Positions 75 through 64,000 of a DNA stretch of 64,000 nt are shown one piece after another. The stretch comes from a virus, in the IMG/VR virus record IMGVR_UViG_3300030108_001677, positions 22,383-86,382 of that record; one strand, written 5' to 3'. A model generated the notes under the pieces. It was not told the DNA's origin. It saw only the letters and a program-made list of their open reading frames with translations, and did no database searches. Position numbers and translations under genes: made by a program. Each line of letters opens with the position of its first letter. Position 1 is the stretch's first letter.

Positions 75-395
75 ATGAGCGAAGATATAGAGAAGATCCG
101 TGCTGAAAAGATAGCGGCACTGCAAGCAAAGATGAAGAAGGCTGATGAAGAAAACGAAGAAATAACCGCCATGAAGCAAGAATTTACATGGTCGGATTTC
201 GGTTATGAAGAACCACCATTTGGTTTTCGTGAAAGCGAAGAAATGCCGGGTGCATTTGATATTTGCCAAGAGCGTCAATCGGTTGCCATAACTGGCGACC
301 CAAGATTCGCTATGCTTGTCACAGACTTGTTAAACAGGGCTAAGAAAGAGGAACTCATCATTAACCACAAAGCAGGGGAGATAAAGGATGAGTAA
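75..395 (+). CDS. Hypothetical protein (acidic, N-terminal coiled coil)
   Basis: 106-aa ORF with GGTGA SD upstream; overlaps the next gene start. Confidence 0.75.
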   Translation: MSEDIEKIRAEKIAALQAKMKKADEENEEITAMKQEFTWSDFGYEEPPFGFRESEEMPGAFDICQERQSVAITGDPRFAMLVTDLLNRAKKEELIINHKAGEIKDE

Positions 396-6542: not shown

Positions 6543-6883
6543 TATCTCACTTCCATGACGACATCTATTCTTACTTCATTGGTAGCATTTTTACTGATAG
6601 GAATGAAAGACGACCTAAACGCTGGGTTGTCTAATGGTGTGTTACCGTGTATAACTACTTCTTTGATTGCTTGTGCCGATACTTGGTCTGTTCCAAACAG
6701 TGCATTCACTGATATGGTTCTATCATCAACACGCTGAACAACTGGTGTTTTGGTTAGTGCTACATTACCCACACCGTTGTTTCTCCTTGAGGCTTCACCG
6801 CCCGTTGTTCCAAGACTCATGTTTTTCACAAGGGTCTGTAAATGGTCTGTTAATTTTGCTTTGATTGAATCTAATATTGGCAT
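6542..6883 (-). CDS. Tail collar / fibre-attachment-like protein
   Basis: SLGTTGG...IKEVVIH...FIPISKNATNEVRIDVVMEV resembles phage tail-collar domains; tail-locus position. Confidence 0.55.
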   Translation of the reverse strand: MPILDSIKAKLTDHLQTLVKNMSLGTTGGEASRRNNGVGNVALTKTPVVQRVDDRTISVNALFGTDQVSAQAIKEVVIHGNTPLDNPAFRSSFIPISKNATNEVRIDVVMEVR

Positions 6884-16218: not shown

Positions 16219-16222
16219 GTTA

Positions 16223-19200
16223 TCACCAAGTGTTCCTCGCATTATAGAGATTGGCGACTTGCTGGGCTGTCATACCATGATTCCACATAGCCATTTCACT
16301 AAGCACCCCTTTCCAATATCTTGGGTCATTATTACCACTACCGTGTGTTCCGTGATAATAACCCGGATAATTTGAAGGGGCTAAAAGATCTATTCCAACA
16401 CAGTGCATGTATGATGATTTACCATAAAGACCACTTGCCAACGCATTACCAACACCAATTGTTTGTGGTAAGTGCCTTCCACTGTCCAACGCTAACGGTT
16501 CAAGTAAAGTCCACGGTGCATACGCCTCCAATACTCCATTGACATAAAGTAATGCTTGTGTTGATGTTGGGTTTCTTGTGATTACTATGTGCTGATATTC
16601 GCTCTTTGGCCTATCGGTGATTTCAGCCGATACCACAACATCAGTGCCATTGTTGTGCGGTGTCATTACCGCCACACGATATGAAAATACTCCGCTTGAA
16701 GAACCTTGCTTTGAAAATATTGACACGCCTAACCCTTTGTAATCGGCTTGGCCTGTATTGATAAAACCGTGATACACCGGACCGTTACCCCATGCTTGAC
16801 TTGACCAATTGCCAGTATCACCCGGTAAGAAAAAGAAAGAAAGCGTGTATTGTGATGTTGCATCGTCAACCCATTCATCTTGTATGGGCACTAAACTTGG
16901 AACATTGGTAAGGGCGTTGTTGTTATTTACCACTAAGTCTTTGTCGTGCAAGGCGATTGCGAATGCTGATGTGTGGCCGTTGGATAATACCCCTTTACAA
17001 CTTGGATCTGCTGTTGGTCCGGCCACTAATGCAACAGTGTCGCTTCGATTGACATACACTTTAGAGCCATGAATTGTGTCTATGGCTAACTTCTTTCTTG
17101 CCTGTGGCTGTCCTAATTCCTCTTGGCTCATTGGTAAATACCAAAGGCATGTGTTCCTTGTATCTAATGTATTGGCGGCATCGGGCAAAGCCCCAGTGAC
17201 AACTGTGTTCACTTGATGGTGCATCCCACGATATGTGTTAGAATTTACAGTATCTTCATTTTTCAATTCACTAAAATCAAGCACTGCGGCTGATGTTTGC
17301 ACGCCTTCTAAATTTTGGAAACCACTGTTTCCAGCCGGACCTTTAGAATAATGGTGGGTATAGAAATCACTGTAATCGTTATCGGTTCCATCGCTTATAT
17401 CGAAGGTCACGCCTGTATGACCACCACCAAAGAATAGAATGCCGTTGGCATCAACAAGCGGGTTTAGTAATTTGACAGGCACTTCTTTCAGTGCGCCCGT
17501 GTTATCATAAAACAAATCTTTCCATTTCTTACCAAGTGTTTTGTCTAAGGGTTGTGTGTTAGCCAAACCAATACACGAACCTACACCGGAAACCTTGCTT
17601 GGTGGAACACCATTCACACCTGTGATTATGTCATCAAATTCTCCTAAATGTTGACCATCAACCAAGATTAATCCTTTATTCTCCCTTGAGATCGTTCCTT
17701 TAATTCTATACAATATGTCCAGTGCTTTGCGCTCAACCATGAGGGTTGGTTGAGATTCGGGGTCATAATTTGGAATTGCATCTCCATTCTCAAATTGCGG
17801 TAGCGACACCGTGTTAAACTCAAACTCTTGACCAACTCCTTCGTAAGTCCGAAGGTTATTATCAGCATCGCTTACAGCCCCATGCACACCCCCTTGAAAT
17901 GTAGTTATGGGCAAGTGTGTTTCACCATCCATACCTAACGGTAAAGGCACGGGGAACGCACCCGCTTGATATGAACGGCTGTTGGTAGCCAATAGGCCAC
18001 CGTGACCTACCGCTTGTATTGGTCTGTATGGGTATGGACTTTCATTGTTTATCCACACTGCAAAGTTACGACCCGAAGCACCCGGCACGGTGCTGTGGAT
18101 TACTATTGACAGTCCTTCTTCACCATCCCTGCTCTCAACGGTTTGTCCTAAGAACGCTCTCAAATAACCCATGTGAGAGCCAGTATCGTTACTTGCTACA
18201 ACAGTGTGTTGACCGGCAGTGTTTGTGAACAAAGGCGGAGGGTCGAAGGCACTACCGCCCTGCAAATTCTTTGCGTTAGGATGTCCGGCTTGATTGATAC
18301 GCCTTATTAATTCATCAACAGCATCTTCAAATTTGCTTACTGTTCCAACACTGGCAATATCGCCCAGTTTTATTTTCATAGGTCTAACCCAATCAAGTGT
18401 AAGACCATCGCTTCTTTTTCCTTTTAATGACAAATAACCACTGCGGCATTCAACAGGCGGAACCAATGGTTTGGTATCTTGCGAATAAAGATAATTTCCG
18501 GGGTCAAAGGTAAAACCTTCCATAGTCGGACCATCATATATCAACACAGTATTCGGGTCATTGGGATCTAAATGTATTCCGCTTCTATCTGTAACTCCGT
18601 TTGTTATTGTCCTACCAAGTGCAAATGTTTTTTCTAACGGACCAATAAAAGACTGTGCTACGGTGCTTTCAGTGCTGTTCGCACCTACCACACCAGCGTT
18701 TAATGCGCTAAAATTGCCTTCAAGCGCAGTTTGAGTATTAGGAATAACATAATTAACTGGTGGAAATCCTACTCCAACACCGTTTGCGTTAGTCAACCAA
18801 CTACCCATAACGACAGGCAACCCAGCAACAATAACACTTTTCAACCCAGCATAACTTAGGTTATTATCTTCAAAGTCTTGGTATGCGTTAAAGTATAATC
18901 TGCTTTCGCTACCGACTGTTAGTGCTTGATGTATGTGTAATCGTATGCCTTTTTCACTGATGATGCCCTCTCCTACGGTTACTACAAAACCCGTATTGTC
19001 AAATGGTTCTGTTGCTAAGGGGGCAGTGACATAATTCCCAGTGTTAGTGCCTTCAAATCCACCTTCTTCGCCTTGTATAAAGGGTAAGATTGAGTCAACT
19101 AAAAGGTATGTGCCAAAGTGCGAAAAGTCTGCATTGTTATTACCTCCACCAAGCACAACTTGTGTGTCGCTGGCCGCACCACTATATGATGCGGCACGGG

Positions 19201-21286
19201 TGAAAGTGGATGATGATTCACGCATGGCTCTTATCCAAAAATCACTTACAACTTCATTGATGGTTAATGCTTGGACTTTGTTTTTAGCACCCCAGTCAAT
19301 TGCGTTTCGGCTTTCATAGTCTTTCATTTGTGGCCTATTCATAGCGGTCATTGTTGCATCTAAAACCAATTCCATAGACTTGTTAGAAGGCAGTGGTGAA
19401 CGCTTTTTAGTGCTGGTCGCTAAACGCTGTTCAACATCGAAAAACATAGATGGGAATAATGGTAACTCAACTAAAGCACGGGTTGAGGCATAATAGGTTG
19501 ATGTTTGCTTATCGTTTCGCACCGATGGATTATCCGCCCCAATCACTTTGTCTTTCCATACAGGCAAGAAAGAATGCTCGGTTCTATCGGGTTTGATGTC
19601 TATACCGCCCTGTCCTAATCCAGCCATAGTTAGACTTACTGACGGTGAACCCAAGTCACCGATTTCTTTTATTGCGTAGCCATCGGTTAGACTAAAATCT
19701 CTTTCAACTATTCGATCTGTTATGTCCATTAATTGTGATTTGCCACGAATCAAAACACCCCCAGTGTTAGACTCACTGTTCGGTGCTATTTCCTCAACAC
19801 GACCTTTCATTGTCAACAAATTGACTTGACATATATGCGGGCTATCGCTGTTTGTTGTTGTTGAAATCGTGTTAAGAATACCACTACGCTTTCGATTCTT
19901 TGGATGTATTAACAATAAATTCAAATCATTGTCTTTAACATTGTCAATTATGTCAAACTGCTCAAATGTGATAGGTCTTAACGATGTCCTGTGTCTTGAT
20001 ATAGGTTGATTGTAATGGTTCCCATCAGTGTTACCGGTAGCGGCTGGCACCTTCTCTTTCTTAGGGGATATAACCGATAGCGTATGGTAAGATGATAGGC
20101 TTTTCTTAACCGGGCTGATAGTGTTAGGTATGCCTTTTGGTCGCCCGTATGCGGATAATTTTGGATTACGACCAACTGAAATAGCCTCTTGTATTATTGT
20201 ATGTGGACAATTAGACACATCAATAAATGGAGAAAGTGTTTCATCACCAGTCGGATTGACACGCATTACATGGTCTTGTGGTGGCTTATTGAAATTAGCC
20301 GATGGTAATGATATAATGCCACCGGGTGCGGCTATCTCAAGTGCATCCGGTAGCGGAATGGTGGAATTAGGGTCGGTAGGATCTCCCCCATCTGCTATGA
20401 AGCGTGCATCAGTGAATGGCCTTTTCAACCAATCAGCAAGTGTTCTGTTGCGGATTGTTTGTGTTGTAGTATCTGTAAAAACAGTGTTTGAGTCCGGCAC
20501 TGTCTTTTCAACAATCAACCAAGATTTTTTACCACCTACACCCCCAACAGTGTATGACATTCCTTGTATGTCATTTTTGTCGTTTTGGAATTGTTGCCAA
20601 GCGGCCACATTACCTACTGTAAGAAAATTAGGGTCGTCTTTGTATGCGGCTATAACCTCACCGGACAGGTCTATGGCGTTGTAGTGAACCTCGACCACAC
20701 TTGGCAAGCCACCACCGTTGATACATTCACTTGGAATAGTTATTTTTGCTATTCTTGATTCTTTTTCCGGTGTCAAGTGCCTTATGTATTCTTGATTTGT
20801 TGGCTTAGTCCGGTCGTTTGTGTCAAACAATGCACGGTGTTCGGTATCAAGACCCTTTAACAAAAACGGTCTTATGTCCTCAACGGCAATTGCTAATATA
20901 GAATCGGCTGTGCTTGAAGGATAAGTGCCGGTCAAGTCTGTATTACCTTGTCCACCCTGCACAATAATTGAAGAAACTTCTTGACCGTTACCTTGTATAG
21001 ATTCAAAGGTTGATACAACACTGTTTGTAATAACATCTAAAGCCTCTCCTTGATACACTGTTTCAGTAATATTGACATTATCATTTAATGAAACAACGCT
21101 ACCAATAGAAGCATCTTCATAAGTGGATTCAAACCTGTCGGCTATACCTTGAACCGTGCGTGTAACTACCTCTTTGTTGGGCTGTGGTAACTTCGCTAAG
21201 AAAAAGTGTCCTTCGACTTTGTTGTATGAAGTAAATCCACACTGACCAACAAAATCATCAACGGCTTCGGGTAGTGTAATTGTCAT
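16223..21286 (-). CDS. Large tail protein with hub-like segment and C-terminal LamG/concanavalin-like domain
   Basis: Start MTITL at 21286 (TGATG overlap); YTLSFFF, YQHIVITR...LLYVNG, WKGVLSEMAMWN...QQVANLY. Confidence 0.75.
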   Translation of the reverse strand: MTITLPEAVDDFVGQCGFTSYNKVEGHFFLAKLPQPNKEVVTRTVQGIADRFESTYEDASIGSVVSLNDNVNITETVYQGEALDVITNSVVSTFESIQGNGQEVSSIIVQGGQGNTDLTGTYPSSTADSILAIAVEDIRPFLLKGLDTEHRALFDTNDRTKPTNQEYIRHLTPEKESRIAKITIPSECINGGGLPSVVEVHYNAIDLSGEVIAAYKDDPNFLTVGNVAAWQQFQNDKNDIQGMSYTVGGVGGKKSWLIVEKTVPDSNTVFTDTTTQTIRNRTLADWLKRPFTDARFIADGGDPTDPNSTIPLPDALEIAAPGGIISLPSANFNKPPQDHVMRVNPTGDETLSPFIDVSNCPHTIIQEAISVGRNPKLSAYGRPKGIPNTISPVKKSLSSYHTLSVISPKKEKVPAATGNTDGNHYNQPISRHRTSLRPITFEQFDIIDNVKDNDLNLLLIHPKNRKRSGILNTISTTTNSDSPHICQVNLLTMKGRVEEIAPNSESNTGGVLIRGKSQLMDITDRIVERDFSLTDGYAIKEIGDLGSPSVSLTMAGLGQGGIDIKPDRTEHSFLPVWKDKVIGADNPSVRNDKQTSTYYASTRALVELPLFPSMFFDVEQRLATSTKKRSPLPSNKSMELVLDATMTAMNRPQMKDYESRNAIDWGAKNKVQALTINEVVSDFWIRAMRESSSTFTRAASYSGAASDTQVVLGGGNNNADFSHFGTYLLVDSILPFIQGEEGGFEGTNTGNYVTAPLATEPFDNTGFVVTVGEGIISEKGIRLHIHQALTVGSESRLYFNAYQDFEDNNLSYAGLKSVIVAGLPVVMGSWLTNANGVGVGFPPVNYVIPNTQTALEGNFSALNAGVVGANSTESTVAQSFIGPLEKTFALGRTITNGVTDRSGIHLDPNDPNTVLIYDGPTMEGFTFDPGNYLYSQDTKPLVPPVECRSGYLSLKGKRSDGLTLDWVRPMKIKLGDIASVGTVSKFEDAVDELIRRINQAGHPNAKNLQGGSAFDPPPLFTNTAGQHTVVASNDTGSHMGYLRAFLGQTVESRDGEEGLSIVIHSTVPGASGRNFAVWINNESPYPYRPIQAVGHGGLLATNSRSYQAGAFPVPLPLGMDGETHLPITTFQGGVHGAVSDADNNLRTYEGVGQEFEFNTVSLPQFENGDAIPNYDPESQPTLMVERKALDILYRIKGTISRENKGLILVDGQHLGEFDDIITGVNGVPPSKVSGVGSCIGLANTQPLDKTLGKKWKDLFYDNTGALKEVPVKLLNPLVDANGILFFGGGHTGVTFDISDGTDNDYSDFYTHHYSKGPAGNSGFQNLEGVQTSAAVLDFSELKNEDTVNSNTYRGMHHQVNTVVTGALPDAANTLDTRNTCLWYLPMSQEELGQPQARKKLAIDTIHGSKVYVNRSDTVALVAGPTADPSCKGVLSNGHTSAFAIALHDKDLVVNNNNALTNVPSLVPIQDEWVDDATSQYTLSFFFLPGDTGNWSSQAWGNGPVYHGFINTGQADYKGLGVSIFSKQGSSSGVFSYRVAVMTPHNNGTDVVVSAEITDRPKSEYQHIVITRNPTSTQALLYVNGVLEAYAPWTLLEPLALDSGRHLPQTIGVGNALASGLYGKSSYMHCVGIDLLAPSNYPGYYHGTHGSGNNDPRYWKGVLSEMAMWNHGMTAQQVANLYNARNTW

Positions 21287-24057
21287 CAAATACCCCACTT
21301 ATCTTCAATATATTGCCTCACATCAGTCAATTCGTTTTGGTTTAATTCCTTCTTGTAAAAAAGAATTTCGTGAATCATAAACCCGCTTGGTGCCGTTCCT
21401 TCAAAAATTAACCCTCTCCTACCTTGACCTATGAAACCGAATAGGTTTATGCCAGCGTTGAATACATCGGAGAATGTTGCTGGGTTTCCTAACGGCCAAT
21501 TGCCCTGTGGATCATCTAACACAGGGTGAAAAACAAATCGGCTTGCACCCGGATTACCAGCGAATTGAGCGTTGTATAATGGGTTAGAACCACCAACTTC
21601 GGTGTAAAGCGACCAAGTGCCAGCATTACCGTTTTGTGGGTCACAACGCACTATAACTACTGATGGTGTTCCGGCAACTGGTGTTCCAGCCGTTCCTACT
21701 GATACCGGTCCAAAGCCACCACCATCCATTAGTAAAGTCGGACCTACAACGGCTGGCAATCCAGCATCTAACTTTTGACTTCTATGACCAACACCAAACT
21801 TACTGTCAAACATATTCAACGGCACATTAGGGTCGTATGGTGCGGGCGTTACCACATAAACAAAGGTGTATTTACCATTTGTGTGATTTACTTCATTGTG
21901 GAACGCACTGAATTGTTGCTTACCCTGTGGCACCAACAATGGGAGGCTTGGGATATATCCACGATAACCCACTGGATTGGCTGGGTCAAACGGTGCCATG
22001 CCTAATCGGCTACCAAATTTATTGACCCAACCACTAAATATGGTCGGACCTGTTTTTCCTATTCTTGCCATTTCCCATTCTAACGGCATACCGCCAAATG
22101 AATGGAGTCCTTCACCTTCGGAAAACTCAAGAACCCAACCCATTTGTGTGTCCAAATCGTGTAAAAACGGCACACCTATTTGGCCTTGATAATTATAATC
22201 TGTAATGCTGGCCGCTTTCAAAGAACCTATACTGTTAGTGGCTGGGTTGTGTTTAACATAGATCCACGGAAACATAAACATCGGACCGGAATAAAATACC
22301 GCTTCCGGATGAAGTGTTGATTTGCTTTTCCACCAAGAAACTTCTGTCGTTTGCTTACCTACTTGTTGTCCGTGAGCATCAAACATATAACGAGGATCAT
22401 TCCCATCCAGCCACAAAATCAACTCATTTGTAAAAGGTGCAAGGTAATCAGCAGGGTTGAAAAGACCGGTTGTTTGTGATGGAGAAACACGATTTGCTTC
22501 GGTGTTTCGTGATGTTTTACTGACCCAATAAGCATCATTCCCGAAGCCCGATTTGTCCGTAAAGAATTGACCTTGTGTGAACCTTGCTCTTGTCATTTGA
22601 CCCTTCTTTCTCAATTTGCCACCATTGTCAATGATTAAGTCACCATTACCAAGCGTGAACCAAACAGGGGTATTATCGGTGTGTTCAAACAAAAACCCTT
22701 GAGTATGAGGATCTGCATCAACATCAGCATCAATCAAGATACTGTTTTGCACTACTACCCTATCGTTTTGAAAATCTAACGCTATGATTCTTACTCTTTC
22801 AATAGGGTTTCCAATCGGATCTAATGCTATCCCGCCATCGGTATCGGCATCAGTGGGATTAAAAGAATAAGATGAAAAGGGCAAGCCGGTGATAGGATCG
22901 GTGCCCGATGTGTTGACAATAGCATTTAGACTGGACACAGGCAAGCCATCTGTATGATATGAGTCCTTTGTTACGATAGCACCTATGTCTAAAATTCGAC
23001 TACCCCACCATGTTTGTAATGGCAATTCTTCGACTGGTATTTTCAATAAGTAAGATGCAATTAATTCTAAAGCGGTTGCCTTACCAAAAGGATGATTTCT
23101 TATTTTGAATGTTCCATAATCCATACCTGTGGCTAAAGAAATCGGATTAGTGACGGGTTGTGTTACTGCAACATTGGTAAAATCATACGCTACACATACC
23201 ATCGGTAGTGGCATGTCTGCATCTTCATCTCCTGTTCCGTCAATAATCGGTGTAGTGAATGCGGGTGTCTTGTTGTTAAAGAAATACAAATCCGGCACAT
23301 CAATTTCATCTTCAAAATCCCATAAGCCTATGGTGTCTTGTGTCTTGGTAAGAGGCTGTAATTGTGGTGCTACAATCCCCCTGCTAATACGCACACTTTC
23401 GATAACGCCCCTGTATTGGCCGCCTGTTCCTCCGATGTGAAGATCCGATGAGAATGCTTTTGTTGTCCGTGTTTCACCACCAAAGTCTAACTCGCCAAAC
23501 AACTCTCCGTTGACAAAGACTCTTAGCCCCTCTCCTGTGAATTGAGCGTTAATGTAAAACATCGGATTGCCACTTAACGATAAATCATGAGGCAAATTGC
23601 CACCTACGCCGTATGTTCCACCTACGGCAAATTCATTTGCGGCTGGCGACCACAAGTGTGGGATAGTTAGAGTTTCTATTGCTTCACTATTCCCAGCATT
23701 TCGTGTCAAAACACTGAAACTAAGATTTGCTGACTGGCGTATTTCACCAAATTTCAAAGTGTAACAGCCTTCTTTATGCACTATAACACCGCCACAATCC
23801 GGTATAACATAGGCTTCTATTGTGAATGGTCCGATTAGATTGTTCAACGGATTCCCTTCGTTTGGAATATGTCTTAGGCCAATCTTTGGCTCATCACTGT
23901 TATATGAAGAAACTTTGTTGGTTATACCCTTTTTTTCAGCATGACCGCTTGGGAATAAATCAACACCGGTTTCTCTAAATGCACCAGTGGGAACAACCAT
24001 GCCGTCAGTAAAGCCGTTCAACCGCACGGCTTGTGTGCTTACCCTCTCAACCGCCAT
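21286..24057 (-). CDS. Tail-associated protein with two LamG-like domains
   Basis: FTIEAYV...RVFVNG...LHIGG...YRGVIESVRIS...GLWDFED; second domain LILWLDG...IHEILFY...YIEDKWGI. Confidence 0.75.
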   Translation of the reverse strand: MAVERVSTQAVRLNGFTDGMVVPTGAFRETGVDLFPSGHAEKKGITNKVSSYNSDEPKIGLRHIPNEGNPLNNLIGPFTIEAYVIPDCGGVIVHKEGCYTLKFGEIRQSANLSFSVLTRNAGNSEAIETLTIPHLWSPAANEFAVGGTYGVGGNLPHDLSLSGNPMFYINAQFTGEGLRVFVNGELFGELDFGGETRTTKAFSSDLHIGGTGGQYRGVIESVRISRGIVAPQLQPLTKTQDTIGLWDFEDEIDVPDLYFFNNKTPAFTTPIIDGTGDEDADMPLPMVCVAYDFTNVAVTQPVTNPISLATGMDYGTFKIRNHPFGKATALELIASYLLKIPVEELPLQTWWGSRILDIGAIVTKDSYHTDGLPVSSLNAIVNTSGTDPITGLPFSSYSFNPTDADTDGGIALDPIGNPIERVRIIALDFQNDRVVVQNSILIDADVDADPHTQGFLFEHTDNTPVWFTLGNGDLIIDNGGKLRKKGQMTRARFTQGQFFTDKSGFGNDAYWVSKTSRNTEANRVSPSQTTGLFNPADYLAPFTNELILWLDGNDPRYMFDAHGQQVGKQTTEVSWWKSKSTLHPEAVFYSGPMFMFPWIYVKHNPATNSIGSLKAASITDYNYQGQIGVPFLHDLDTQMGWVLEFSEGEGLHSFGGMPLEWEMARIGKTGPTIFSGWVNKFGSRLGMAPFDPANPVGYRGYIPSLPLLVPQGKQQFSAFHNEVNHTNGKYTFVYVVTPAPYDPNVPLNMFDSKFGVGHRSQKLDAGLPAVVGPTLLMDGGGFGPVSVGTAGTPVAGTPSVVIVRCDPQNGNAGTWSLYTEVGGSNPLYNAQFAGNPGASRFVFHPVLDDPQGNWPLGNPATFSDVFNAGINLFGFIGQGRRGLIFEGTAPSGFMIHEILFYKKELNQNELTDVRQYIEDKWGI

Positions 24058-56704: not shown

Positions 56705-57396
56705 TCCATCATCTCCTTGAACGCATCATCGTATTGACCCTCTCCACCACCAATTCCCATAGCCCTCATGGCTCTTAGATTGTCGGCATAATTCATATCC
56801 AGTCTGTGGTTATGCACACGGATCGCTTCTTCTAATGGTGTTTCTTCTGTGCCCATTAGTCCGGCTAAATCATCCATAGTTATGGAAAATCCGCCCATAG
56901 GTATCATACCCATTCTCCTACCTGTTTCATTAGGATTTACACCTTCCAAGTGAATATCCATTTCATAAGGATTTTCAGCATCAATGACCCCTCCAACACC
57001 TTCGGAATTTACCATGTAAAATTCACCATTGGGTGCTTGCACTACAAACTGATCTCCATGTGAAACTCTTGGCTTTGACGACCATCCATCATCATCACGG
57101 TATGGTGTAGCCATATCTATCATAGGGTAGCCATCTTCATCAACATACCCAGCACGCAAGTGTTTGTCATATTGTTCATCAGTCATTCCCATATCCGCAA
57201 ATGGGTGTCGCATTCGTGGCACTTCGTATGTTCCTTCATTCATCTGTGCCAATACATTATCGTGGAACCTTTGGGCAAATTCTTGGAGTCTATCGGGGTC
57301 AAGCCTACGCATCATAATGTTTGACGGCTCTCTATTCCCATGAACACCCCTGCGTTTCAGTAAAGTCCAACCAATATCAAACGCCTTATTGTCCAT
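56701..57396 (-). CDS. Hypothetical acidic M/G/D-rich protein with N-terminal tag
   Basis: Probable start MDNKAFDIGWTLLK at 57396. Confidence 0.7.
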   Translation of the reverse strand: MDNKAFDIGWTLLKRRGVHGNREPSNIMMRRLDPDRLQEFAQRFHDNVLAQMNEGTYEVPRMRHPFADMGMTDEQYDKHLRAGYVDEDGYPMIDMATPYRDDDGWSSKPRVSHGDQFVVQAPNGEFYMVNSEGVGGVIDAENPYEMDIHLEGVNPNETGRRMGMIPMGGFSITMDDLAGLMGTEETPLEEAIRVHNHRLDMNYADNLRAMRAMGIGGGEGQYDDAFKEMME

Positions 57397-58099
57397 CTTC
57401 AAGCACCCCCGCATCGGCCAATGCCTTACGCATAACACGCCATTCTTCGGGCGATTTCTCGGAAAAATGTGCTTGTATGACAGTGAGGACACTGACCTGC
57501 TCGTTAGAACCTACGCTGTCTAACTTTTCAAGGTATTCCCCAATCTCACCCAAAGTGTCACGAATTTCACGGTGAAGTTTTACTGCCGTGTCAAGACCCT
57601 TGTAATCAAGTGCGCCAGTTTCCTGTTGTTCCTCACGCATCAAATCAACATGGTCATTGAACAAAGTATTCAAACGCTGTAAATTGTTTTCAGTTTGGCG
57701 CATAGCGGTTCTTGCACTATCTATTCGTGCTGGCAACATCTCCACAGACACTTCACGCTGAATAATTGGTGTGGTGTGATTTTCCATGTGTTGTGATAAA
57801 GCAGTGGTTGTGATGTCTAACTCGGTAGCCATATCTTCAATTGAAACAATGTGATTAAGCACAGCCTGTTCGATGTTGGCTCTTTCGGGGTGTGTGCATA
57901 CAGGGCATTCGCTGTTGCTATTGTTGTGGTAATCACCCGAATGCCTACGCATGTGCCTATGTGCAGTGCCCTCCGGCCATTCTTGACTACGATCTAATTC
58001 TTCGACCTCAAGCGTTCCTAAACGAATCATTCTTTCGTAATTATCACGCTGTGGGTGCTGACAGAATGGACAATTGGCTCTTGTCCTACGCCCCGTCAT
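57386..58099 (-). CDS. Putative terminase small subunit / DNA-binding protein with tandem Zn-HTH repeats
   Basis: Two repeats CP.C.HP.R...E...HM..H followed by a helical oligomerisation-like region; upstream of the packaging cluster. Confidence 0.5.
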   Translation of the reverse strand: MTGRRTRANCPFCQHPQRDNYERMIRLGTLEVEELDRSQEWPEGTAHRHMRRHSGDYHNNSNSECPVCTHPERANIEQAVLNHIVSIEDMATELDITTTALSQHMENHTTPIIQREVSVEMLPARIDSARTAMRQTENNLQRLNTLFNDHVDLMREEQQETGALDYKGLDTAVKLHREIRDTLGEIGEYLEKLDSVGSNEQVSVLTVIQAHFSEKSPEEWRVMRKALADAGVLEDGQ

Positions 58100-58121: not shown

Positions 58122-58331
58122 TTATTTCATTTTTGACTTTTTTGGTGTGTGAACACCGCAGTAAGCAGTTCCACGCTTTGGGTGGTTTTTACAAGGCTCT
58201 CCGTTCTTTTTTGTTGCTTGACAAAGTGTGGGTGCTTCGTGCTTAACCACTGGTCTTTTGGGTATATCCACTACTGCATACGCTTGTGGTGGCGGGGCTA
58301 CTATTCGCCCGTTAATACCGAAAGGAAGCAT
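58122..58331 (-). CDS. Small CCCH zinc-finger protein
   Basis: CQATKKNGEPCKN......YCGVH. Confidence 0.65.
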   Translation of the reverse strand: MLPFGINGRIVAPPPQAYAVVDIPKRPVVKHEAPTLCQATKKNGEPCKNHPKRGTAYCGVHTPKKSKMK

Positions 58332-58566
58332 ATTGACGGATCGCTATTGTTCCTGTCAATATCAGTCCGAAAAACATAGCCATCACTGCACTTGTTCCCA
58401 AAGCCGGACCTTTCCATACTAATACCACCAAAGAAAACAATATGAATGCAATAATGTAAATCATGGTTGCACTTTCCACAATCATTTTCTTTGGACTCAA
58501 GATGTCCAGTGTTGCCGATGAAATTGAAACCTCTCCTTGAACAGCCGACTCGTCTTTTTCTCCCAT
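58312..58566 (-). CDS. Small protein with two transmembrane helices
   Basis: MIYIIAFILFSLVVLVW and AVMAMFFGLILTGTIAI. Confidence 0.75.
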   Translation of the reverse strand: MGEKDESAVQGEVSISSATLDILSPKKMIVESATMIYIIAFILFSLVVLVWKGPALGTSAVMAMFFGLILTGTIAIRQYASFRY

Positions 58567-58570
58567 ATTA

Positions 58571-59218
58571 TCACAATCCTACTGCCGCACCTTTAGCGGC
58601 CATATTTACACCTTGCCCCATAGTGGCACCAAAGCCACCGTTTTGTTGCATTTGATTACCTATGATTCCTCCAAGCAGGTTGCCAAAGAAACCGGGCTGA
58701 TTTTGTTGCATGTTATTCATCATCATGCCTTGCTGGTGTGCGGCAAGGAACATTTGTAATTGTTGCTGGTTTGCATTCAATACATTCTGTGCGGCACTTT
58801 GGGCTGTTTGTAGTGTCAAAGCAAGATTTTCTTGTGACATGGTAGCCAATTCGCTTGGCAACGAACCAGCATCAAGACTTAATTTTTCACCCTCTATCTT
58901 GAATGAAACATTGTTGAAAAATTCTTTTATTGACAACTGCACAATCTCACCAACCAAATTTAGAACCAACGCCATATTTTGTGATACTACAAAGTTTGAA
59001 ACTGGGTCATACATGGCTAACAATTGGGATGTTGCCACGATAGGATCGTTGGCGGCCTGTTGCATCATTGGGTTCTGTGCTTGTTGCATCATGCCCATAG
59101 CACCCATGTTGCCCATTCCCATCATATTGTTTCCATACGCTTGATTCTGTGCTGTTACCGTTGGCGCACCAAATTGTTGTGCTGGTTGCGCTTTATTTCC
59201 AAATCCAAATAATCCCAT
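58571..59218 (-). CDS. Q/M/N/G-rich protein with low-complexity termini and helical core
   Basis: MGLFGFG start; NNMMGMGNMGAMGMMQQ; GFFGNLLGGII. Confidence 0.8.
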   Translation of the reverse strand: MGLFGFGNKAQPAQQFGAPTVTAQNQAYGNNMMGMGNMGAMGMMQQAQNPMMQQAANDPIVATSQLLAMYDPVSNFVVSQNMALVLNLVGEIVQLSIKEFFNNVSFKIEGEKLSLDAGSLPSELATMSQENLALTLQTAQSAAQNVLNANQQQLQMFLAAHQQGMMMNNMQQNQPGFFGNLLGGIIGNQMQQNGGFGATMGQGVNMAAKGAAVGL

Positions 59219-59223
59219 GTTCG

Positions 59224-60132
59224 TTACCCCTGTTTCACTGCCATTGGTTCCTGTGGCGTGATTTGTTGCTGTTGCGTTTGTGGCGCAATATTTACCATAC
59301 TACCTTGATTCATTTGCTCTAACTGCAAGGCTCTCATATCAAATGTGACCGTGACCAAATCAGCAACCCCCGTAACCGGATTAACATGCTGATTCAATAC
59401 TACTCCTTTACTGTATTGTGCATCTTGTTGTATCATTTGAAAGAAAGGTGCATATTTCGCTAAAGACTCCGGTGTTGACCTATTCTTTGCTGATGATTTA
59501 CCACTAAGACCCGGCACTTTCAAGAATCGTGTGCCCTTTGCCACTATCTTACCAAAACCTTCATCCTCCATTTCATGTTCCTCAAGCATACAGCGAAGTG
59601 TGTGGTATATGTGCAAATGTGCTGGACAAAGTGTGCTATTCATTTCATCTCCGTGATCTCCGTGCGTGCGGGCATGAGGCTTTCTTGCTTGACCCGTATC
59701 TTCATCGAACCAGTATATGTCGGCTAACGACAAACCAGTTTTCTCGTCAACAATGTGGTTGTATGCGTTATCACCTTCAAGGAAACGCCTAACATCAACA
59801 CCACAACAAGCACATTCGTGTGCGGCATTATATCTGTAAATCTTGAATAGACCGAGATTATATGATGGTGGGCGTAGTGCCTTTCTCATCTTTTTGATAT
59901 TCTTTTTTCTTGCCTTTCGTGGATTCTTAGGATTGGTTACTAACTTCAACTCAACTGTTGGAATTAGTGCTTCACCCTCGACTCCACCTGTTGAACCAGC
60001 ACTCGCCATCTCGGCTCTTTGTTGTGCTTTCAACATGTCCACTGAAATACCAGTGTGCATGGCAAGGACATTCAACTCATCATCGGATAGGCCGTTCAAA
60101 GACATGCCCCCGCCAAATGGATTTATACGCAT
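59224..60132 (-). CDS. Hypothetical protein with putative zinc-binding motif
   Basis: HECACCG...LCPAH; basic K/R patch; GGTGAG SD. Confidence 0.75.
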   Translation of the reverse strand: MRINPFGGGMSLNGLSDDELNVLAMHTGISVDMLKAQQRAEMASAGSTGGVEGEALIPTVELKLVTNPKNPRKARKKNIKKMRKALRPPSYNLGLFKIYRYNAAHECACCGVDVRRFLEGDNAYNHIVDEKTGLSLADIYWFDEDTGQARKPHARTHGDHGDEMNSTLCPAHLHIYHTLRCMLEEHEMEDEGFGKIVAKGTRFLKVPGLSGKSSAKNRSTPESLAKYAPFFQMIQQDAQYSKGVVLNQHVNPVTGVADLVTVTFDMRALQLEQMNQGSMVNIAPQTQQQQITPQEPMAVKQG

Positions 60133-60187: not shown

Positions 60188-60916
60188 TCAAATTAAATTT
60201 ATTGTGTGGATAACTGCTTCTTCAACACGCAAACCAAATTGCGCTGATACAGCCTCCACATTTGTAGCCACTGCTGACTTTCGTAATCTTCGCATATCCT
60301 CTTGAAATGGTGCTACCATAGGGTGTTGCCGTTTGAGTCCAGCATCCCATATCTTTTGCGATTGAGCATCCCACCACACATCCATCTTGTTCAACAGCAA
60401 ACAAACAACACTGGGTTTGTATTTCTTGGCTTTTCTTTTCATACTACGACTAAATGTAGTGGGATATTTGTGATTCACAATAATGTCCGTAAGATACTTG
60501 AAACCAGCAACAGCCTCTTGCATGGCTGGCTGTGACCATGCTATTCTATCATCAACAACAAAGAAAATTATGTTCGCTTTACGATCTATCATATCCTCCG
60601 CCCACATATTCCAATATTGACTTTGACCGCCAATGTCGGTGGATGTAATCGGCACCCTATCTCCTTTGTAACGCACTTGTTTTTTGGTGGAATGAGGCAT
60701 TTGAAACTTGCCTCGTTTTACTGGGTGGGTTGTTCGCAACTCCACCGGTATTGGGTCAATATCACCCGGCACAGTAAGATACTGGTCAAGTGTCGTTTTA
60801 CCTGCCAATGAAGGACCATATATTGCTACTTTGTGTGGGCGCAATATTCTATACACATAGGTTGCTATTTGTGCTGACCCCATTAGCAAGTGACCAGCAA
60901 ACATCCATGTTGCCAT
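60188..60916 (-). CDS. Ras-superfamily small GTPase, Arf-like
   Basis: G1 GPSLAGKTT, G3 DIGGQ followed by YWNMW, IIFFVVD, G4 LLLNKMD, G5 SAQFG.RVEEA; N-terminal hydrophobic/amphipathic extension. Confidence 0.85.
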   Translation of the reverse strand: MATWMFAGHLLMGSAQIATYVYRILRPHKVAIYGPSLAGKTTLDQYLTVPGDIDPIPVELRTTHPVKRGKFQMPHSTKKQVRYKGDRVPITSTDIGGQSQYWNMWAEDMIDRKANIIFFVVDDRIAWSQPAMQEAVAGFKYLTDIIVNHKYPTTFSRSMKRKAKKYKPSVVCLLLNKMDVWWDAQSQKIWDAGLKRQHPMVAPFQEDMRRLRKSAVATNVEAVSAQFGLRVEEAVIHTINLI

Positions 60917-60922
60917 TCACAA

Positions 60923-61144
60923 TCACTCGCCCCTGATCCATTTCCATACACTATGTGGGCTAATATCTCCCCATACTTCTAAGCCTAACAAAACGAAAAA
61001 TGACAAACTCACACCAATAAAAAACGCCAATATAGATTTTACAGTCCATGCCGCCCTCTCCATGCGCCTATCGTAAGCGTTTTCAGCAAGTATCGCTGAC
61101 ATGGCTTCCGCCTGTCTTTCCTGTGCTGTGTTAAAAGGCCACAT
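60923..61144 (-). CDS. Small single-pass membrane protein
   Basis: Start MWPFN at 61144 (AGGTGG SD); ILAFFIGVSLSFFVLLGL. Confidence 0.75.
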   Translation of the reverse strand: MWPFNTAQERQAEAMSAILAENAYDRRMERAAWTVKSILAFFIGVSLSFFVLLGLEVWGDISPHSVWKWIRGE

Positions 61145-61157
61145 GCTACTGCACCAC

Positions 61158-61628
61158 CTATTGCTGTTCACTATCGGATTTAGGTTCTTCTCCGTCATTC
61201 GGTAAGCCAAATGTTTGTTGTTGTGGGTTAGTTACCTGTTGCCAACTGGTTTGTTTATTATACATCTCAATATCCTGTTGCATTTGATAATCTTTTCTCA
61301 TACGGCGTTGTTGTAGTCGCATTTGATTTCGATGCCACTTATCATAACGCCCTTCTTGTGCAAATTCAGCACGCAGGGCAAGTGAGTCACGGATTCCACC
61401 TACATGGAATAGCACCATAGCCACACAAAGGAAACCAAATGCAATTAACCCGTATTGTAATCCCATTTCAGCCGGACTTGCTTCGGGTAAATACCAATCC
61501 AAATGAGAAACGGTTACTGAAACACCAGTCAAAAGCGATTGCCATAGCAACATGGCAATTAGGTTGATGTCAATACGGTTCCCATCATCGGGCATTTGCC
61601 ACGGTGGTATTCTTTGTGGTTGGTTCAT
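61158..61628 (-). CDS. Two-TM membrane protein with Q/R-rich coiled-coil tail
   Basis: Start MNQPQ at 61628; LIAMLLWQSLLTGVSV and YGLIAFGFLCVAMVLF. Confidence 0.75.
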   Translation of the reverse strand: MNQPQRIPPWQMPDDGNRIDINLIAMLLWQSLLTGVSVTVSHLDWYLPEASPAEMGLQYGLIAFGFLCVAMVLFHVGGIRDSLALRAEFAQEGRYDKWHRNQMRLQQRRMRKDYQMQQDIEMYNKQTSWQQVTNPQQQTFGLPNDGEEPKSDSEQQ

Positions 61629-61629
61629 T

Positions 61630-61767
61630 TTATTCCGCCCCCTTCTTTTCTTCAAAATATTTCTTTAGCACGAAATTGACGAATGAGGATTTAGACTCAC
61701 GCCCCCTTTCCGCTTCTAATTTTGCGAACAGATCGTCCGGCATAACTACTGAAACATGTCGGCTCAT
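61630..61767 (-). CDS. Ribbon-helix-helix (CopG/Arc-like) transcription regulator, 45 aa (not in ORF track)
   Basis: Read manually: MSRHVSVVMPDDLFAKLEAERGRESKSSFVNFVLKKYFEEKKGAE, with an alternating beta strand, PD.L..LE and S.S.FV..L..Y. Confidence 0.8.
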   Translation of the reverse strand: MSRHVSVVMPDDLFAKLEAERGRESKSSFVNFVLKKYFEEKKGAE

Positions 61768-61835: not shown

Positions 61836-62348
61836 ATGCCATCTGCAAACATGCCCGATGCAGTAAAAGCCATGCGCTCATATTATTTTGTAATAAACGC
61901 AATACCAAACAGCCCCGAAGTTTTATCCTCATGGATTCAAAGGCATACTGATGAGGCATTAGCGGCTGACTTTGATTACAGGGCGGCAATCGCTGTTTTA
62001 CATCATTTTAACCATCCGTTGTATTCAAACACATCAAACCACCCATCGGGCACTACATCGTGGTGTAACCTAATGACTGGTGCTGAAACCATATTACAAG
62101 ACGAACAGGCTTGGATAAATGACCAGTTAGAAATCGCTAACATCACACGACCACAGCGTTTGTTTGATTCCGACATTACATGGTTGAACGCTTGGGCAAC
62201 GGCTAACGGTATTCCACAAAACCTTGAAACCGCTTTCTTAGTCAATATGCTAATTCAACAATTGCGAACATGTGAGGGTAGCAACGGTGCTACTGGTGCT
62301 GGTGGTATATCGCATACTGAACGCAATCCGCCAACAAACTTACCTTAG
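61836..62348 (+). CDS. Hypothetical protein (only plus-strand gene in the late region)
   Basis: 170-aa ORF filling the gap; TATA upstream; its stop overlaps the convergent gene. Confidence 0.7.
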   Translation: MPSANMPDAVKAMRSYYFVINAIPNSPEVLSSWIQRHTDEALAADFDYRAAIAVLHHFNHPLYSNTSNHPSGTTSWCNLMTGAETILQDEQAWINDQLEIANITRPQRLFDSDITWLNAWATANGIPQNLETAFLVNMLIQQLRTCEGSNGATGAGGISHTERNPPTNLP

Positions 62349-63469
62349 TCACGCATTTGCTCAAATATATTTTCTAAAGCCATTTGCCTCATGGTTGGAG
62401 GTAACTTGGAAAGTGCCCTTTGATTTTCAAGATAGACACTCCTACCTCCCCTTCGGAAACATGCACGACAACCCATCTCACCAGTTAATGGATCTCTAAC
62501 AAGATTGCACTTCTTTGGATTACCGGGTATGGTTGCCCTGCAAATGGTATCGGGATTGCTTGGTATCTTGTCAAACCCTGTCATACCCAACATTGGTTTT
62601 CCATCAGCACCCAATAACCTCGACAATTCTCCGACATTGATTGTCCTATTTGGCACATCTTTACTGGTAAAGGTAATATCGGTGTTGTCTTTTACCTGTT
62701 CGGGCAACATCCTACCCGGTAGCGACATTTGTATTGCTAAGTTTGGTGCAATAGCATCCGGCTCAAATCCTCTTGCTTCTAAGAAGTCATACAAATATGG
62801 TATTTGTCTTGTGGACATCCACATGTCCACCATCGGATTCCTACGGGCTATCTGATCTGCTAAAGCAAACGCACCCGAACCTCTTGCATTTCCAGCCGAA
62901 AATACTCTTGCGTTTATGTCGTCTGTGGGTCTTTTGCGGGCTAACATGGCCGATGGTGTCAAGGTTTCAGCGTATGCCGCACCTATCTGTTCGGGATAAT
63001 TCAACATCCTGTCAAGATTACGCCATTGTGATATTTGCACAGTAGGATAACCATAGTTACCCTTACAAGCATAACAATGACCACAAGCCATGTTAGGATT
63101 TTCTCTATCGGCAAATATACACGCTCTTGGTGGAGAGTCCATTATAGAAGGTCCGGGCATCTTGTTGGGTTCACCATAGTGTCCAAACTTAGCGGGTTTT
63201 ATACTTTGGAGATTTGCTGGCAAATCCCCTCTAATATCCTCAAAAATTGGCAAATCATAGTCCATCTCAAGCGGGATGTCAATTAAACGGGGAACACCAC
63301 CGGGATTCAAATAAGCATCCACCTTTTCCGGATTCGCTTCAATGAATCTTGCAGGGTTTATTTTGACTGGGGGGTTTCGTCTAAACTTATCCCAAGCAAG
63401 CATATCATCTTCATCGCCTACTGCTTTGATTAGCAATTTGCCTAACTGATGGGTTATAGCATCAATCAA
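62345..63469 (-). CDS. Gp88-like (radical-SAM-related, Cys-rich) protein
   Basis: NKMPG...P..AC...ACGHCYA.KG.Y, RVFSAGN, WMSTR, NLAIQMS, C-terminal C...C...CRAC; start TTG 63469 or ATG 63499. Confidence 0.65.
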   Translation of the reverse strand: MIDAITHQLGKLLIKAVGDEDDMLAWDKFRRNPPVKINPARFIEANPEKVDAYLNPGGVPRLIDIPLEMDYDLPIFEDIRGDLPANLQSIKPAKFGHYGEPNKMPGPSIMDSPPRACIFADRENPNMACGHCYACKGNYGYPTVQISQWRNLDRMLNYPEQIGAAYAETLTPSAMLARKRPTDDINARVFSAGNARGSGAFALADQIARRNPMVDMWMSTRQIPYLYDFLEARGFEPDAIAPNLAIQMSLPGRMLPEQVKDNTDITFTSKDVPNRTINVGELSRLLGADGKPMLGMTGFDKIPSNPDTICRATIPGNPKKCNLVRDPLTGEMGCRACFRRGGRSVYLENQRALSKLPPTMRQMALENIFEQMRD

Positions 63470-64000
63470 AGAAAAGCCCCCTGTTTCAGCACAGCCCATC
63501 CACCTTCAAAGGCGTTTTGGGGTTCCGACATCATAAAGTCCATTAAATCGGTTTGCTTGTTCTCCTTCGGCAAGAAACGACCATACCCATGATTTTGTAG
63601 TAATTCATTGATTGAATGACCATCCATATTGGGTATGTTAGCCACACCGACCATCTCTAACTTATCTCCACGAAGTGATGGGTTAGCACCGCTATTGTCC
63701 GGCCTGTTTATGATTGTAGTGTCCAACCCGATGTCTTTGTATTGTTCAATGGGCGCAATACTGTCAAAAGCCATGACTGGTTGGCCTTCTTGTATTCTTT
63801 CTTCTAATTGCCTCAATGTTGGTCTTGGGTCAAACCCAACACCGTATGAACCCGGCTCACCCGAATAGGGCGGGTCGTTTATCAGCAACTTGTTGTTGTC
63901 AATATCCCATTCGGCCAGTGCTTCGGCACCATCTCCCTGTCTAACATTTACATTTTGTAATGGATCTCGGTAATTTAACAGGCTTTCCGAAGTGGGTAAG
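63466..64000 (-). CDS. C-terminal part of a second N6-adenine DNA methyltransferase (truncated by window edge)
   Basis: Frame is open from the window end: ...NVNVRQGDG...LLINDPPYSG (motif IV); ends with QTDLMDFM and AFEGGWAVLK. Confidence 0.65.
   Translation of the reverse strand, partial: LPTSESLLNYRDPLQNVNVRQGDGAEALAEWDIDNNKLLINDPPYSGEPGSYGVGFDPRPTLRQLEERIQEGQPVMAFDSIAPIEQYKDIGLDTTIINRPDNSGANPSLRGDKLEMVGVANIPNMDGHSINELLQNHGYGRFLPKENKQTDLMDFMMSEPQNAFEGGWAVLKQGAFL

Follow-up and report, generated by a model that had tools for sequence, protein, structure and literature searches.

A virus-specific small GTPase of marine tailed archaeal viruses, probably sister to a Heimdallarchaeia-wide GTPase family

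The window analyzed here is a 64,000-nucleotide stretch (bases 22383-86382) of the IMG/VR viral record IMGVR_UViG_3300030108_001677, which is 86,382 bp long and has a CheckV completeness of 81%. One open reading frame (ORF) on its minus strand, at 60188..60916 and with an ATG start, encodes a small GTPase of 242 amino acids (aa). An initial annotation had read this protein as an Arf-type GTPase of a non-Asgard archaeal virus, with a retained catalytic glutamine and an N-terminal extension that could be an amphipathic membrane helix. After analysis of the gene, its viral relatives and its cellular kin, we favor with moderate confidence the reading that it represents a virus-specific Ras-superfamily family of Poseidoniales magroviruses, the sister group of which is a Heimdallarchaeia-wide cellular GTPase family, here named AsgX, with the same two expansions of the G-domain. 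The gene and its parts are as follows, residue counts referring here and throughout to an 82-member alignment of the viral GTPase family.

60188..60916, minus strand: small GTPase of the Ras superfamily, 242 aa, a core gene in the viral lineage
60836..60916, minus strand: N-terminal segment, aa 1-27, uncharged, apolar and Gly/Ala/Ser-rich (about residues 2-17), then amphipathic (about 15-27); candidate membrane anchor
60791..60817, minus strand: G1 P-loop GPSLAGKTT, aa 34-42; G34 in 81/82 members, G39 in 80, K40 in 80, T41 in 78, T42 in 79
60623..60637, minus strand: G3 DIGGQ, aa 94-98; switch II, containing Trp105, comes next; D94 in 82/82, G97 in 82/82, W105 in 81/82
60380..60391, minus strand: G4 NKMD, aa 176-179; N176 and K177 in 79/82, D179 in 78/82
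60239..60247, minus strand: G5 SAQ, aa 224-226; S224 in 60/82 (Ala in 19), A225 in 63/82, Q226 in 69/82

Residues 1-25 of the translation read MATWMFAGHLLMGSAQIATYVYRIL, and residues 94-105 read DIGGQSQYWNMW. These and the other peptides quoted in the initial annotation, GPSLAGKTT (34-42), IIFFVVD (116-122), NKMD (176-179) and SAQFGLRVEEA (224-234), were all located in the 242-aa translation, confirming the ORF and each motif. G1 to G5 follow one another in order on a single G-domain with GxxxxGKT, T62, DxxG, NKxD and SA(Q/K/R) conserved, the arrangement expected of the Ras superfamily (TRAFAC class) on a domain of about 170-200 aa; T62, the candidate switch I threonine within an R-T-x-H motif, is kept in 79/82 members. 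The G3 element is variable: position 96 is Gly in 46, Ala in 34 and Pro in 2 members, Ala yielding a Ras-like DxAG, and the catalytic position 98 is occupied by Gln in 58, Asp in 15, His in 5, Glu in 3 and Ala in 1. Retention of the catalytic Gln holds for the window protein (Gln98), but across the family for 58/82 members only. The “GG” and Gln of DIGGQ are a trait of the subclade of the window protein and not family-wide.

A homology search identified 101 homologues at E ≤ 0.01 with identities of 43-99%, relatives are encoded on 484 IMG/VR viral contigs, and an exhaustive read of 1.84 billion proteins recovered 63 cluster representatives at E ≤ 1e-3, all within the viral family. Since these numbers are combined with near-invariant G1, G3 and G4 residues, conservation is far above chance, and the GTPase belongs to the core genes of a lineage of marine tailed archaeal viruses. 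Single-sequence scans of Pfam, NCBIfam and PDB with the GTPase gave sub-threshold matches only, PHROGs contained no match for the GTPase or for nine of its neighbors, and tblastn against 50,697 phage records found none. A word-indexed search with the 82-member profile returned 139 proteins at E ≤ 1e-3, and those listed (at least 120) are all family members, with no bridge to cellular proteins. Outside the viral clusters, neighbors in the ESM-Atlas are bacterial G-domain clusters with partial Arf labels, which serve as leads only.

The AlphaFold2 model, built from the 82-row alignment (pLDDT 92.3, pTM 0.88), shows a Ras-like alpha/beta G-domain, where additional elements follow switch I, precede strand 5 and follow G4, as well as a helix over residues 2-25 at pLDDT 57-74. 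A Foldseek comparison with PDB returned small GTPases only (E about 1e-8), with TMq of 0.42-0.52 for Arf, Rho, Rab and Ras alike. The predicted structure confirms the superfamily in this comparison and gives no sub-family order; sequence profiles do rank PDB entries, with the Asgard protein GerdArfR1 on top, as described below.

The window carries head and tail genes (large terminase, portal, S78 prohead protease, an HK97/SU10-type major capsid protein (MCP) and a tail tube protein) and replication genes for a family B DNA polymerase (PolB), an RFC-like AAA ATPase, a PD-(D/E)XK nuclease, an ERCC4-(HhH)2 nuclease and two DNA methyltransferases. All nine MCP matches among the 50,697 phage records are archaeal tailed viruses, eight of them haloarchaeal (HVTV-1, HCTV-1 and HCTV-5 types, 31-32% identity) and one a Methanofastidiosa virus (27% identity); the best PolB matches are Halorubrum tailed viruses. 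Magroviruses have, in the available text of Philosof et al. 2017 (PMC5434244), a Caudoviricetes head module whose MCP resembles those of haloviruses alone, at about 33% identity, together with PolB and RFC, and are linked to Druskaviridae in the available parts of PMC11706807 and PMC8651126. The window virus combines in the same way a halovirus-like MCP (27-32%) with an archaeal-type replication module of PolB, RFC-like ATPase and nucleases.

Scanning 185,579 species genomes uncovered six relatives of the GTPase, and because all six carry the viral gene block we regard them as viral contigs and not as cellular genes. One lies, with the same gene cassette, on a 106,262-bp contig, the scale of a viral genome, in the Ca. 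Poseidoniales single-amplified genome (SAG) AG-422-I20. The other five lie on short contigs in metagenome-assembled genome (MAG) bins titled Parvibaculum (two), Maricaulis, Methanobacteriota and Promethearchaeati. The virus is of magrovirus type and its host most likely a Poseidoniales archaeon. The initial assignment to a non-Asgard archaeal virus is thus borne out by the nine archaeal MCP matches and by the cassette on the 106-kb SAG contig.

Cellular kin were found among Asgard archaea. In the Asgard MAG G001, the viral profile, scored against first-look candidate stretches, placed after the viral-contig copy a 216-aa protein (L102:4891-5538), then one Ras-type protein and then exactly the three top Arf-model proteins. 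The 216-aa protein has ordinary cellular neighbors at the one locus read, including 2-oxoacid:ferredoxin oxidoreductase subunits; its best Pfam match is Arf (38.4 bits), and all 17 of its PDB matches at E ≤ 0.01 are Arl proteins. Within the phylum of this MAG, 32/201 genomes match the viral profile at E ≤ 1e-5, the best approximately 20 matches being proteins of about 200-245 aa with E-values of 1e-9 to 3e-15. The same profile matched a single genome in the order of the Poseidoniales SAG (1/201, E ≤ 1e-3), in its phylum (1/201, E ≤ 1e-5) and in the phylum of a Parvibaculum-titled MAG (1/301, E ≤ 1e-5), each time the binned viral contig and no other relative. The family to which the 216-aa protein belongs, AsgX, comprises proteins of about 208-216 aa. 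A search for it gave 203 matches at E ≤ 1e-5, and among the matches listed (at least 120) 23 of the 26 named by organism are from Heimdallarchaeota/Heimdallarchaeaceae/Heimdallarchaeum or Hodarchaeales/Hodarchaeum, with two from Thorarchaeota and one from Promethearchaeota. AsgX proteins display GNTGVGKTTL, SPTT, DCPGD or DNPGD, LWPYW, a basic insert before strand 5, NKxD and ISA, and are without the N-terminal helix.

The viral family is tied to AsgX by profile alignment, tree topology and motif spacing. Aligned with hhalign, the two profiles match with a probability of 98.65% (E 4.7e-16, 148 columns). In phylogenies of 70 hand-chosen rows (IQ-TREE, LG+C20 PMSF), the clade of virus plus AsgX received SH-aLRT support of 95 with 224 columns and of 97 with 176 columns, the latter set dropping columns filled in <65% of rows and thereby the shared inserts; a careful tree search recovered the clade at UFBoot 100/SH-aLRT 97. 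Two further Asgard proteins of about 295 aa (L123 and L124) join it next (84/94), followed weakly by long Arf-type proteins (74/70). Spacing is an independent character. From the P-loop Lys to the G3 Asp, medians are 54 residues in the viral family (60/82 scored) and 53 in AsgX, against 38-42.5 in Arf-, Ras- and Rag-type proteins and L123/L124; from the G3 Asp to the G4 Asn they are 82 and 74, against 57.5-66. Two G-domain expansions are common to the viral family and AsgX. The phylogenetic comparison suggested in the initial annotation, run with Asgard and viral rows, thus identified AsgX as a robust sister but recovered no nesting within Arf.

In the available text of Vargova et al. (10.1101/2024.02.28.582541), Rup3 is a group whose GTPase domain bears unusual expansions or insertions, and it is described as set apart in evolution from the other groups of GTPases. 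The viral family displays this trait in the form of the two expansions common with AsgX. By its description (Heimdallarchaeial distribution and G-domain expansions), AsgX is quite likely identical to the published Rup3.

Further Asgard proteins were noted in these comparisons. L123:1222-2118(-), L124:1207-2085(-) and about ten similar matches form a second family of Asgard proteins, about 292-312 aa long, that comes next in closeness to the viral family (hhalign 103.1), with an N-terminal extension of about 100 aa and an amphipathic-looking stretch before the P-loop, and without the two expansions (spacing 42.5 and 57.5). A 190-aa Asgard GTPase on a very long branch, L141:915-1487(+) (G001:C72), has a P-loop GPSLAGKTT identical to that of the window protein and is otherwise weakly similar to the viral family (hhalign 35.8). 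The viral contig in the Asgard MAG titled Promethearchaeati archaeon, which also encodes AsgX, is L086 (G001:C18, JABLTJ010000060.1, 8,011 bp); it carries the viral GTPase cassette with a GTPase 38% identical to the window protein. This is either a mis-binned magrovirus-like contig or a sign that a divergent subgroup infects Asgard archaea, which would open a direct route for gene exchange.

The N-terminus is complete in 79/82 members, where it places a median of 26 residues ahead of strand 1, and falls into two parts. The distal part of about 16 residues is uncharged in 70/79 and apolar (median mean hydrophobicity 0.72 on the Fauchere-Pliska scale), has a low helical hydrophobic moment (median 0.10, maximum 0.29) and contains a conserved A-G-H motif with G8 in >90%. 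The 13 proximal residues are amphipathic, with a median moment of 0.44 (range 0.28-0.63) compared with 0.41-0.57 in three Asgard ArfR1-type controls, and align with the C-terminal part of the GerdArfR1 amphipathic helix. Because an 18-residue Kyte-Doolittle mean of at least 1.6 is reached in 3/79 members only, a classical transmembrane (TM) helix is unlikely. The amphipathic helix put forward in the initial annotation accordingly applies to residues of about 15-27, but not to the uncharged apolar residues of about 2-17 with a moment near 0.1. In our reading, the N-terminus could act as an Arf-like amphipathic helix plus an apolar peptide inserting into one membrane leaflet; a buried protein-protein contact is the alternative for the apolar stretch.

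The GTPase gene belongs to a closely packed block of genes in one orientation, separated by -53 to +55 bp, in which the order is 45-aa ORF, 165-aa protein with two predicted TM segments, about 75-95-aa protein with one, GTPase, 302-aa protein, 215-aa protein, 84-aa protein with two predicted TM segments, and 237-aa protein. Conservation of the neighbors was counted in 80 related viral loci, where all cassette genes are on the same strand.

61630..61767, minus strand: 45-aa ORF at the head of the block; 52/80 loci
61158..61655, minus strand: 165-aa protein, two predicted TM segments; 53/80 loci; no Pfam or PHROG match
60923..61210, minus strand: small membrane protein directly upstream of the GTPase, 95-aa ORF, one predicted TM segment; 54/80 loci, median offset -8 bp
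59224..60132, minus strand: orphan protein of 302 aa whose Cys/His cluster (C107, C169, P170, H172, H174, H177) is invariant; 80/80 loci, median gap 43 bp
58571..59218, minus strand: 215-aa Gln/Met/Gly-rich protein; 78/80 loci
58312..58566, minus strand: 84-aa protein, two predicted TM segments; 53/80 loci
57386..58099, minus strand: 237-aa protein, conserved end of the block; 79/80 loci; sub-threshold Pfam matches only

Since homologues elsewhere are about 75 aa long, the true start of the 95-aa ORF is probably internal. The presence of the upstream membrane genes and the 84-aa gene in 52-54/80 loci only is partly due to loci that are cut or sequences that have diverged. A poorly conserved 69-aa ORF precedes the 237-aa gene, the product of which has two C-P-x-C-x-H-P motifs about 55 residues apart, a pattern that suggests paired zinc ribbons. 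The 302-aa protein matched neither Pfam nor PHROGs and its structure model is weak (pLDDT 64.4); a predicted complex of the GTPase with its residues 85-275 scored 0.00 in a run without controls and speaks neither for nor against binding. In the phylum of the Asgard MAG G001 this 302-aa partner was matched in 1/201 genomes, namely on the viral contig, and in none of the 200 others, so only the GTPase, and not the cassette, is common to the viruses and Asgard archaea. Head-morphogenesis genes follow the cassette downstream on the same strand.

Two runs of one study yielded seawater RNA-library contigs that coincide with parts of the GTPase gene at 97-100% identity. They cover the block in part, uncovered parts and depth carry no meaning, and DNA carry-over is possible, so that they give a weak hint of GTPase transcription. 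A scan for sigma-70 promoters and terminators found sites fewer than or about equal to those in shuffled sequence, under a model not applicable to archaea. Elsewhere in the window, a 384-aa protein upstream of the cassette at 62345-63499(-) matches Pfam GP88 (PF17338, E 5.1e-11) and has homologues in 40/80 loci; the replication block includes at 388-1092(+) a short XPF-like nuclease (ERCC4 plus HhH2) of archaeal/eukaryotic-type architecture; and two giant ORFs of 3,119 and 1,691 aa, at 6883-16242(-) and 16223-21298(-), lie downstream of the tail genes and presumably encode tail or host-recognition proteins.

As to function, we tentatively propose that the viral GTPase serves as a membrane-associated GTP switch. 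Its N-terminus, with the apolar and amphipathic stretches, would hold the GTPase on the host membrane or deliver it there, where cycling between GTP and GDP would organize the cassette products: the three small membrane proteins, the Cys/His-cluster protein and the Gln/Met-rich protein. Possible ends of such a switch are membrane remodeling, formation of an assembly site, or egress.

Several observations weigh against this picture of descent and function. The catalytic Gln is replaced by Asp in 15/82 members and by other residues in 9/82, and no partner, GTPase-activating protein or guanine nucleotide exchange factor was identified for the GTPase. The apolar N-terminal stretch, at the TM threshold in 3/79 members and of low pLDDT, could pack on a partner and not in a membrane, and the mechanism of AsgX may differ, because AsgX is without the N-terminal segment and has DxPGD. 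The host was assigned from capsid kinship and a single SAG, and an Asgard MAG bin contains one of the related contigs. With respect to the trees, all are built without eukaryotic sequences, and when the set is cut to 42 rows and rooted on non-Ras GTPases, with viral and AsgX rows thinned and the longest rows (L098, L093_95, L103, L135_855, L136, L138_2124, L141) left out, support for virus plus AsgX is 77.6. Both lineages then fall near the base, where deep branching is not resolved. As the clade joins two long branches, its support drops in the reduced set and both members lie near the base, long-branch attraction is possible. Finally, AsgX and Rup3 were compared by verbal description, against the available part of the Rup3 source.

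The same GTPase might instead act away from the membrane, regulating virion assembly, genome packaging or gene expression with its apolar N-terminus buried in a partner. This function, which we consider unlikely, would fit the position of the cassette directly upstream of head-morphogenesis genes on the same strand, the N-terminus at the TM threshold in so few members, and the conserved A-G-H motif with its near-constant G8, which suggests a specific contact; the Cys/His protein and the CPxC protein of the block could moreover bind nucleic acid. However, three of the seven neighboring conserved ORFs are small predicted membrane proteins, and a 16-residue uncharged N-terminus leading into an amphipathic helix would be typical of membrane-targeting devices.

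With regard to descent, the GTPase could, less probably, be a true member of the Arf family, that is, an ArfR/Arf derivative captured by a virus and diverged since, whose interswitch toggle would free the N-terminal helix onto membranes upon GTP binding. The DxGGQ...W motif is the G3/switch II signature of the Arf family. It is present in the window protein, and across the viral family Gly96 occurs in 46/82, Gln98 in 58/82 and Trp105 in 81/82 members; the family consensus D-I-G-G-Q-x-Q-F-R-N-L-W aligns with D-L-G-G-Q-L-H-F-R-N-L-W of GerdArfR1 and fits the ArfR/Arl8 pattern FRNLW. Family profiles run against all PDB sequences place GerdArfR1 (8oun) first, with E-values of 2.1e-10 and 4.2e-8 from two alignments, followed among GTPases by Arl8A/B, Arl5, Arl3, Arl1 and Arl6 and, further down, by Rab33B (8e-6), KRas (4e-4) and Sar1 (7e-4), with RecA and a few other multi-P-loop artefacts interleaved. 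Entries 8OUN/8OUM are the Asgard Arf GerdArfR1 according to the available text of 10.1101/2024.02.28.582541. Top ranks in VIA are taken by Arf6, Sar1, SRbeta and Arl, with Rab, Ras and Rho 1-4 Z units lower, and Arf is the Pfam family matched by most members at E ≤ 0.1 (45 of the 82, best E 3.1e-6), ahead of Roc (34), MMR_HSR1 (29), Ras (28), SRPRB (12) and RagA (11). The proximal N-terminus is amphipathic like that of the ArfR1 controls, long Arf-type proteins are the next to join virus, AsgX and L123/L124 in the careful tree, and a grouping of virus, AsgX and Arf-type proteins is not rejected by the approximately unbiased (AU) test (p 0.10).

Family membership in the strict sense nevertheless remains doubtful. 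The window protein scores 14.7 bits against Pfam Arf (PF00025), below the gathering score of 22.3, and a raw match to this model is unspecific, because in six-frame searches PF00025 exceeds its cut-off in 12-13 of 14 ordinary control prokaryotes. Pfam Arf and Ras (PF00071) pass their curated cut-offs in 11-13/14 of these bacterial and archaeal control genomes, and such matches alone tell little about family. In hhalign comparisons at identical settings, the viral profile scores 99.4 against Asgard Ras-type proteins (15 rows), 97.1 against all Arf-type (8 rows), 74.4 against canonical ArfR1-type (3 rows) and 68.5 against Rag-type, a tie that does not separate the Arf from the Ras class. The available text of Vargova et al. 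(10.1101/2024.02.28.582541) takes placement inside the ArfR/Arf clade as the mark of the Arf family, and the viral family was not recovered with ArfR1-type proteins in our trees. The Arf toggle is described as a two-residue register shift of the interswitch between GDP and GTP forms; switch I and interswitch are about 12-16 residues longer in the viral family than in Arf-type proteins, so the very device that defines Arf would be altered. Moreover, 34/82 members have the Ras-like DxAG, the sister AsgX is without an N-terminal helix, and should AsgX be Rup3, the authors who described that group keep it apart from ArfR. Being Arf-like in motifs and top matches is, by these sequence comparisons, not the same as belonging to the Arf family. 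The viral family keeps Arf-like traits, namely the GKTT P-loop, a switch II of the form D-x-[GA]-G-[QD]-x6-W and, ahead of strand 1, a short amphipathic helix; it is not demonstrably a member of Arf/ArfR. What stands of the initial assignment is the Arf-like motifs, but not membership in the Arf/Sar family as it was stated.

Descent from Ras-like (RasL/Rup1-type) prokaryotic small GTPases, with convergent or ancestral Arf-like motifs, appears improbable, even if the hhalign score against Asgard Ras-type proteins is as high as that against Arf-type, a grouping of virus, AsgX and Ras-type proteins passes the AU test (p 0.31), Rab33B and KRas occur in the PDB profile list, DxAGQ is found in 34/82 members, and the second-best cellular match of the viral profile in the Asgard MAG G001 scores best with the Ras model. 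The Ras alignment is deeper (15 versus 8 rows), which inflates its hhalign score; Ras-type proteins form a clade of their own (99/93) away from virus plus AsgX in the careful tree, and in VIA the Rab, Ras and Rho entries trail Arf and Sar. GKTT together with a Trp at +11 are features of Arf, Sar and G-alpha, and we count them against a Ras-like origin.

A Roadblock/LC7 (MglB) partner gene nearby is a feature of MglA. Consistent with the initial remark that no such partner was seen, no Roadblock/LC7 Pfam domain occurs in the ten ORFs scanned (five flanking and five further downstream), a set outside which lie the 95-, 84-, 69- and 45-aa neighbors and a 170-aa plus-strand ORF. That the protein is an MglA, a Rup1/2 or a conflict-system TRAFAC GTPase (e.g., a DO-GTPase) engaged in polarity control or in defense and counter-defense, alternatives already raised in the initial annotation, is very improbable: DO-GTPase2 is matched by 2/82 and nSTAND3 by 1/82 members at E ≤ 0.1 and the non-viral ESM-Atlas leads are bacterial, but no such family comes first in the PDB profile, VIA or Pfam rankings, the ten scanned ORFs are free of Roadblock/LC7, the profile found no relative in the 301 bacterial-phylum genomes apart from mis-binned viral contigs, and Asp94 is invariant. 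MglA, Rup1/2 and DO-GTPases never top any ranking, and MglA is absent from the 26 PDB profile matches (E ≤ 0.01) and the 50 VIA rows listed, absence from such lists being no proof.

The reading we retain is thus that of a magrovirus family sister to AsgX. Three points are new: the nearest cellular kin of the magrovirus GTPase is a Heimdallarchaeial family, probably Rup3, with the same G-domain expansions; as a family assignment, “Arf-type” does not hold up when formally tested; and the profile found no relative in 200 further genomes of the order of the SAG. An automatic label, “GTPase SAR1 family protein”, is already attached to some IMG records. The word GTPase has zero occurrences in the main texts of PMC5434244, PMC10160649, PMC11706807 and PMC8651126, although supplementary gene tables may list the gene, and a literature search on magroviruses or archaeal viruses and small GTPases, to which supplementary tables were external, found no description of it. 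Heimdallarchaeia are the Asgard class named as source of the eukaryotic ancestor in the available text of 10.1101/2024.02.28.582541. They hold the only detectable cellular kin of the viral GTPase, none having been found in the order of the SAG (201 genomes, the binned viral contig excepted). The link between these viruses and Heimdallarchaeia is unexpected and testable, and the gene is real and abundant.

If our reading holds, it points to gene flow between archaeal viruses and the Heimdallarchaeial lineage that involves a class of proteins at the heart of how eukaryotic cells are organized, the enigmatic Rup3-like family gains a second, experimentally tractable branch, and tailed archaeal viruses gain a candidate for handling the host membrane. 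A bolder scenario, which we regard as somewhat unlikely, is that the magrovirus GTPase and AsgX/Rup3 descend from a single gene, exchanged in one or the other direction by viruses of marine archaea and the Asgard lineage nearest to eukaryotes, and that the viral branch independently built an Arf-style membrane switch with the uncharged stretch as a substitute for the myristoyl group. Were such movement true, viruses would be carriers or even a source of small-GTPase diversity in the lineage of the eukaryotic ancestor; were the switch true, it would be the first GTP-controlled membrane device known from an archaeal virus. The relevance to Arf proteins anticipated in the initial annotation accordingly extends to the spread of Arf-like, eukaryote-associated GTPases, but for the origin of Arf proper its direct significance is smaller than had been hoped.

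Among known systems, the Asgard ArfR (GerdArfR1, 8OUN/8OUM), Arf/Arl (Arl8, Arf6), Sar1 and SRbeta proteins provide the best PDB sequence-profile and structure matches. Arf/ArfR and the viral family have in common the GKTT P-loop, a switch II of consensus D-x-G-G-Q-x2-F-R-N-L-W and an amphipathic helix just before strand 1, whereas the viral GTPase falls below the Pfam cut-off, has expanded interswitch and G3-G4 regions and was not recovered inside the Arf-type clade. The short N-terminal helix of Arf is myristoylated; in its place the viral protein has an extra uncharged stretch of 14-16 residues. The Rab GTPase of Mimivirus (PDB 5XC5) is likewise a virus-encoded small GTPase. It belongs to a giant virus of eukaryotes and is close to host Rabs, whereas the GTPase described here belongs to a tailed archaeal virus, and no relative was found in the 200 further genomes of the order of the SAG. 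AsgX differs from the viral family in being cellular, in being without the N-terminal apolar/amphipathic segment and in having DxPGD in place of the viral DxGGQ. It is the tree sister (100/97) and matches in profile alignment (E 4.7e-16), and beyond the same two G-domain expansions it resembles the viral family in two tryptophans after G3 at the same spacing, in the basic insert before strand 5, and in its Asp at the catalytic position, which occurs in 15/82 viral members.

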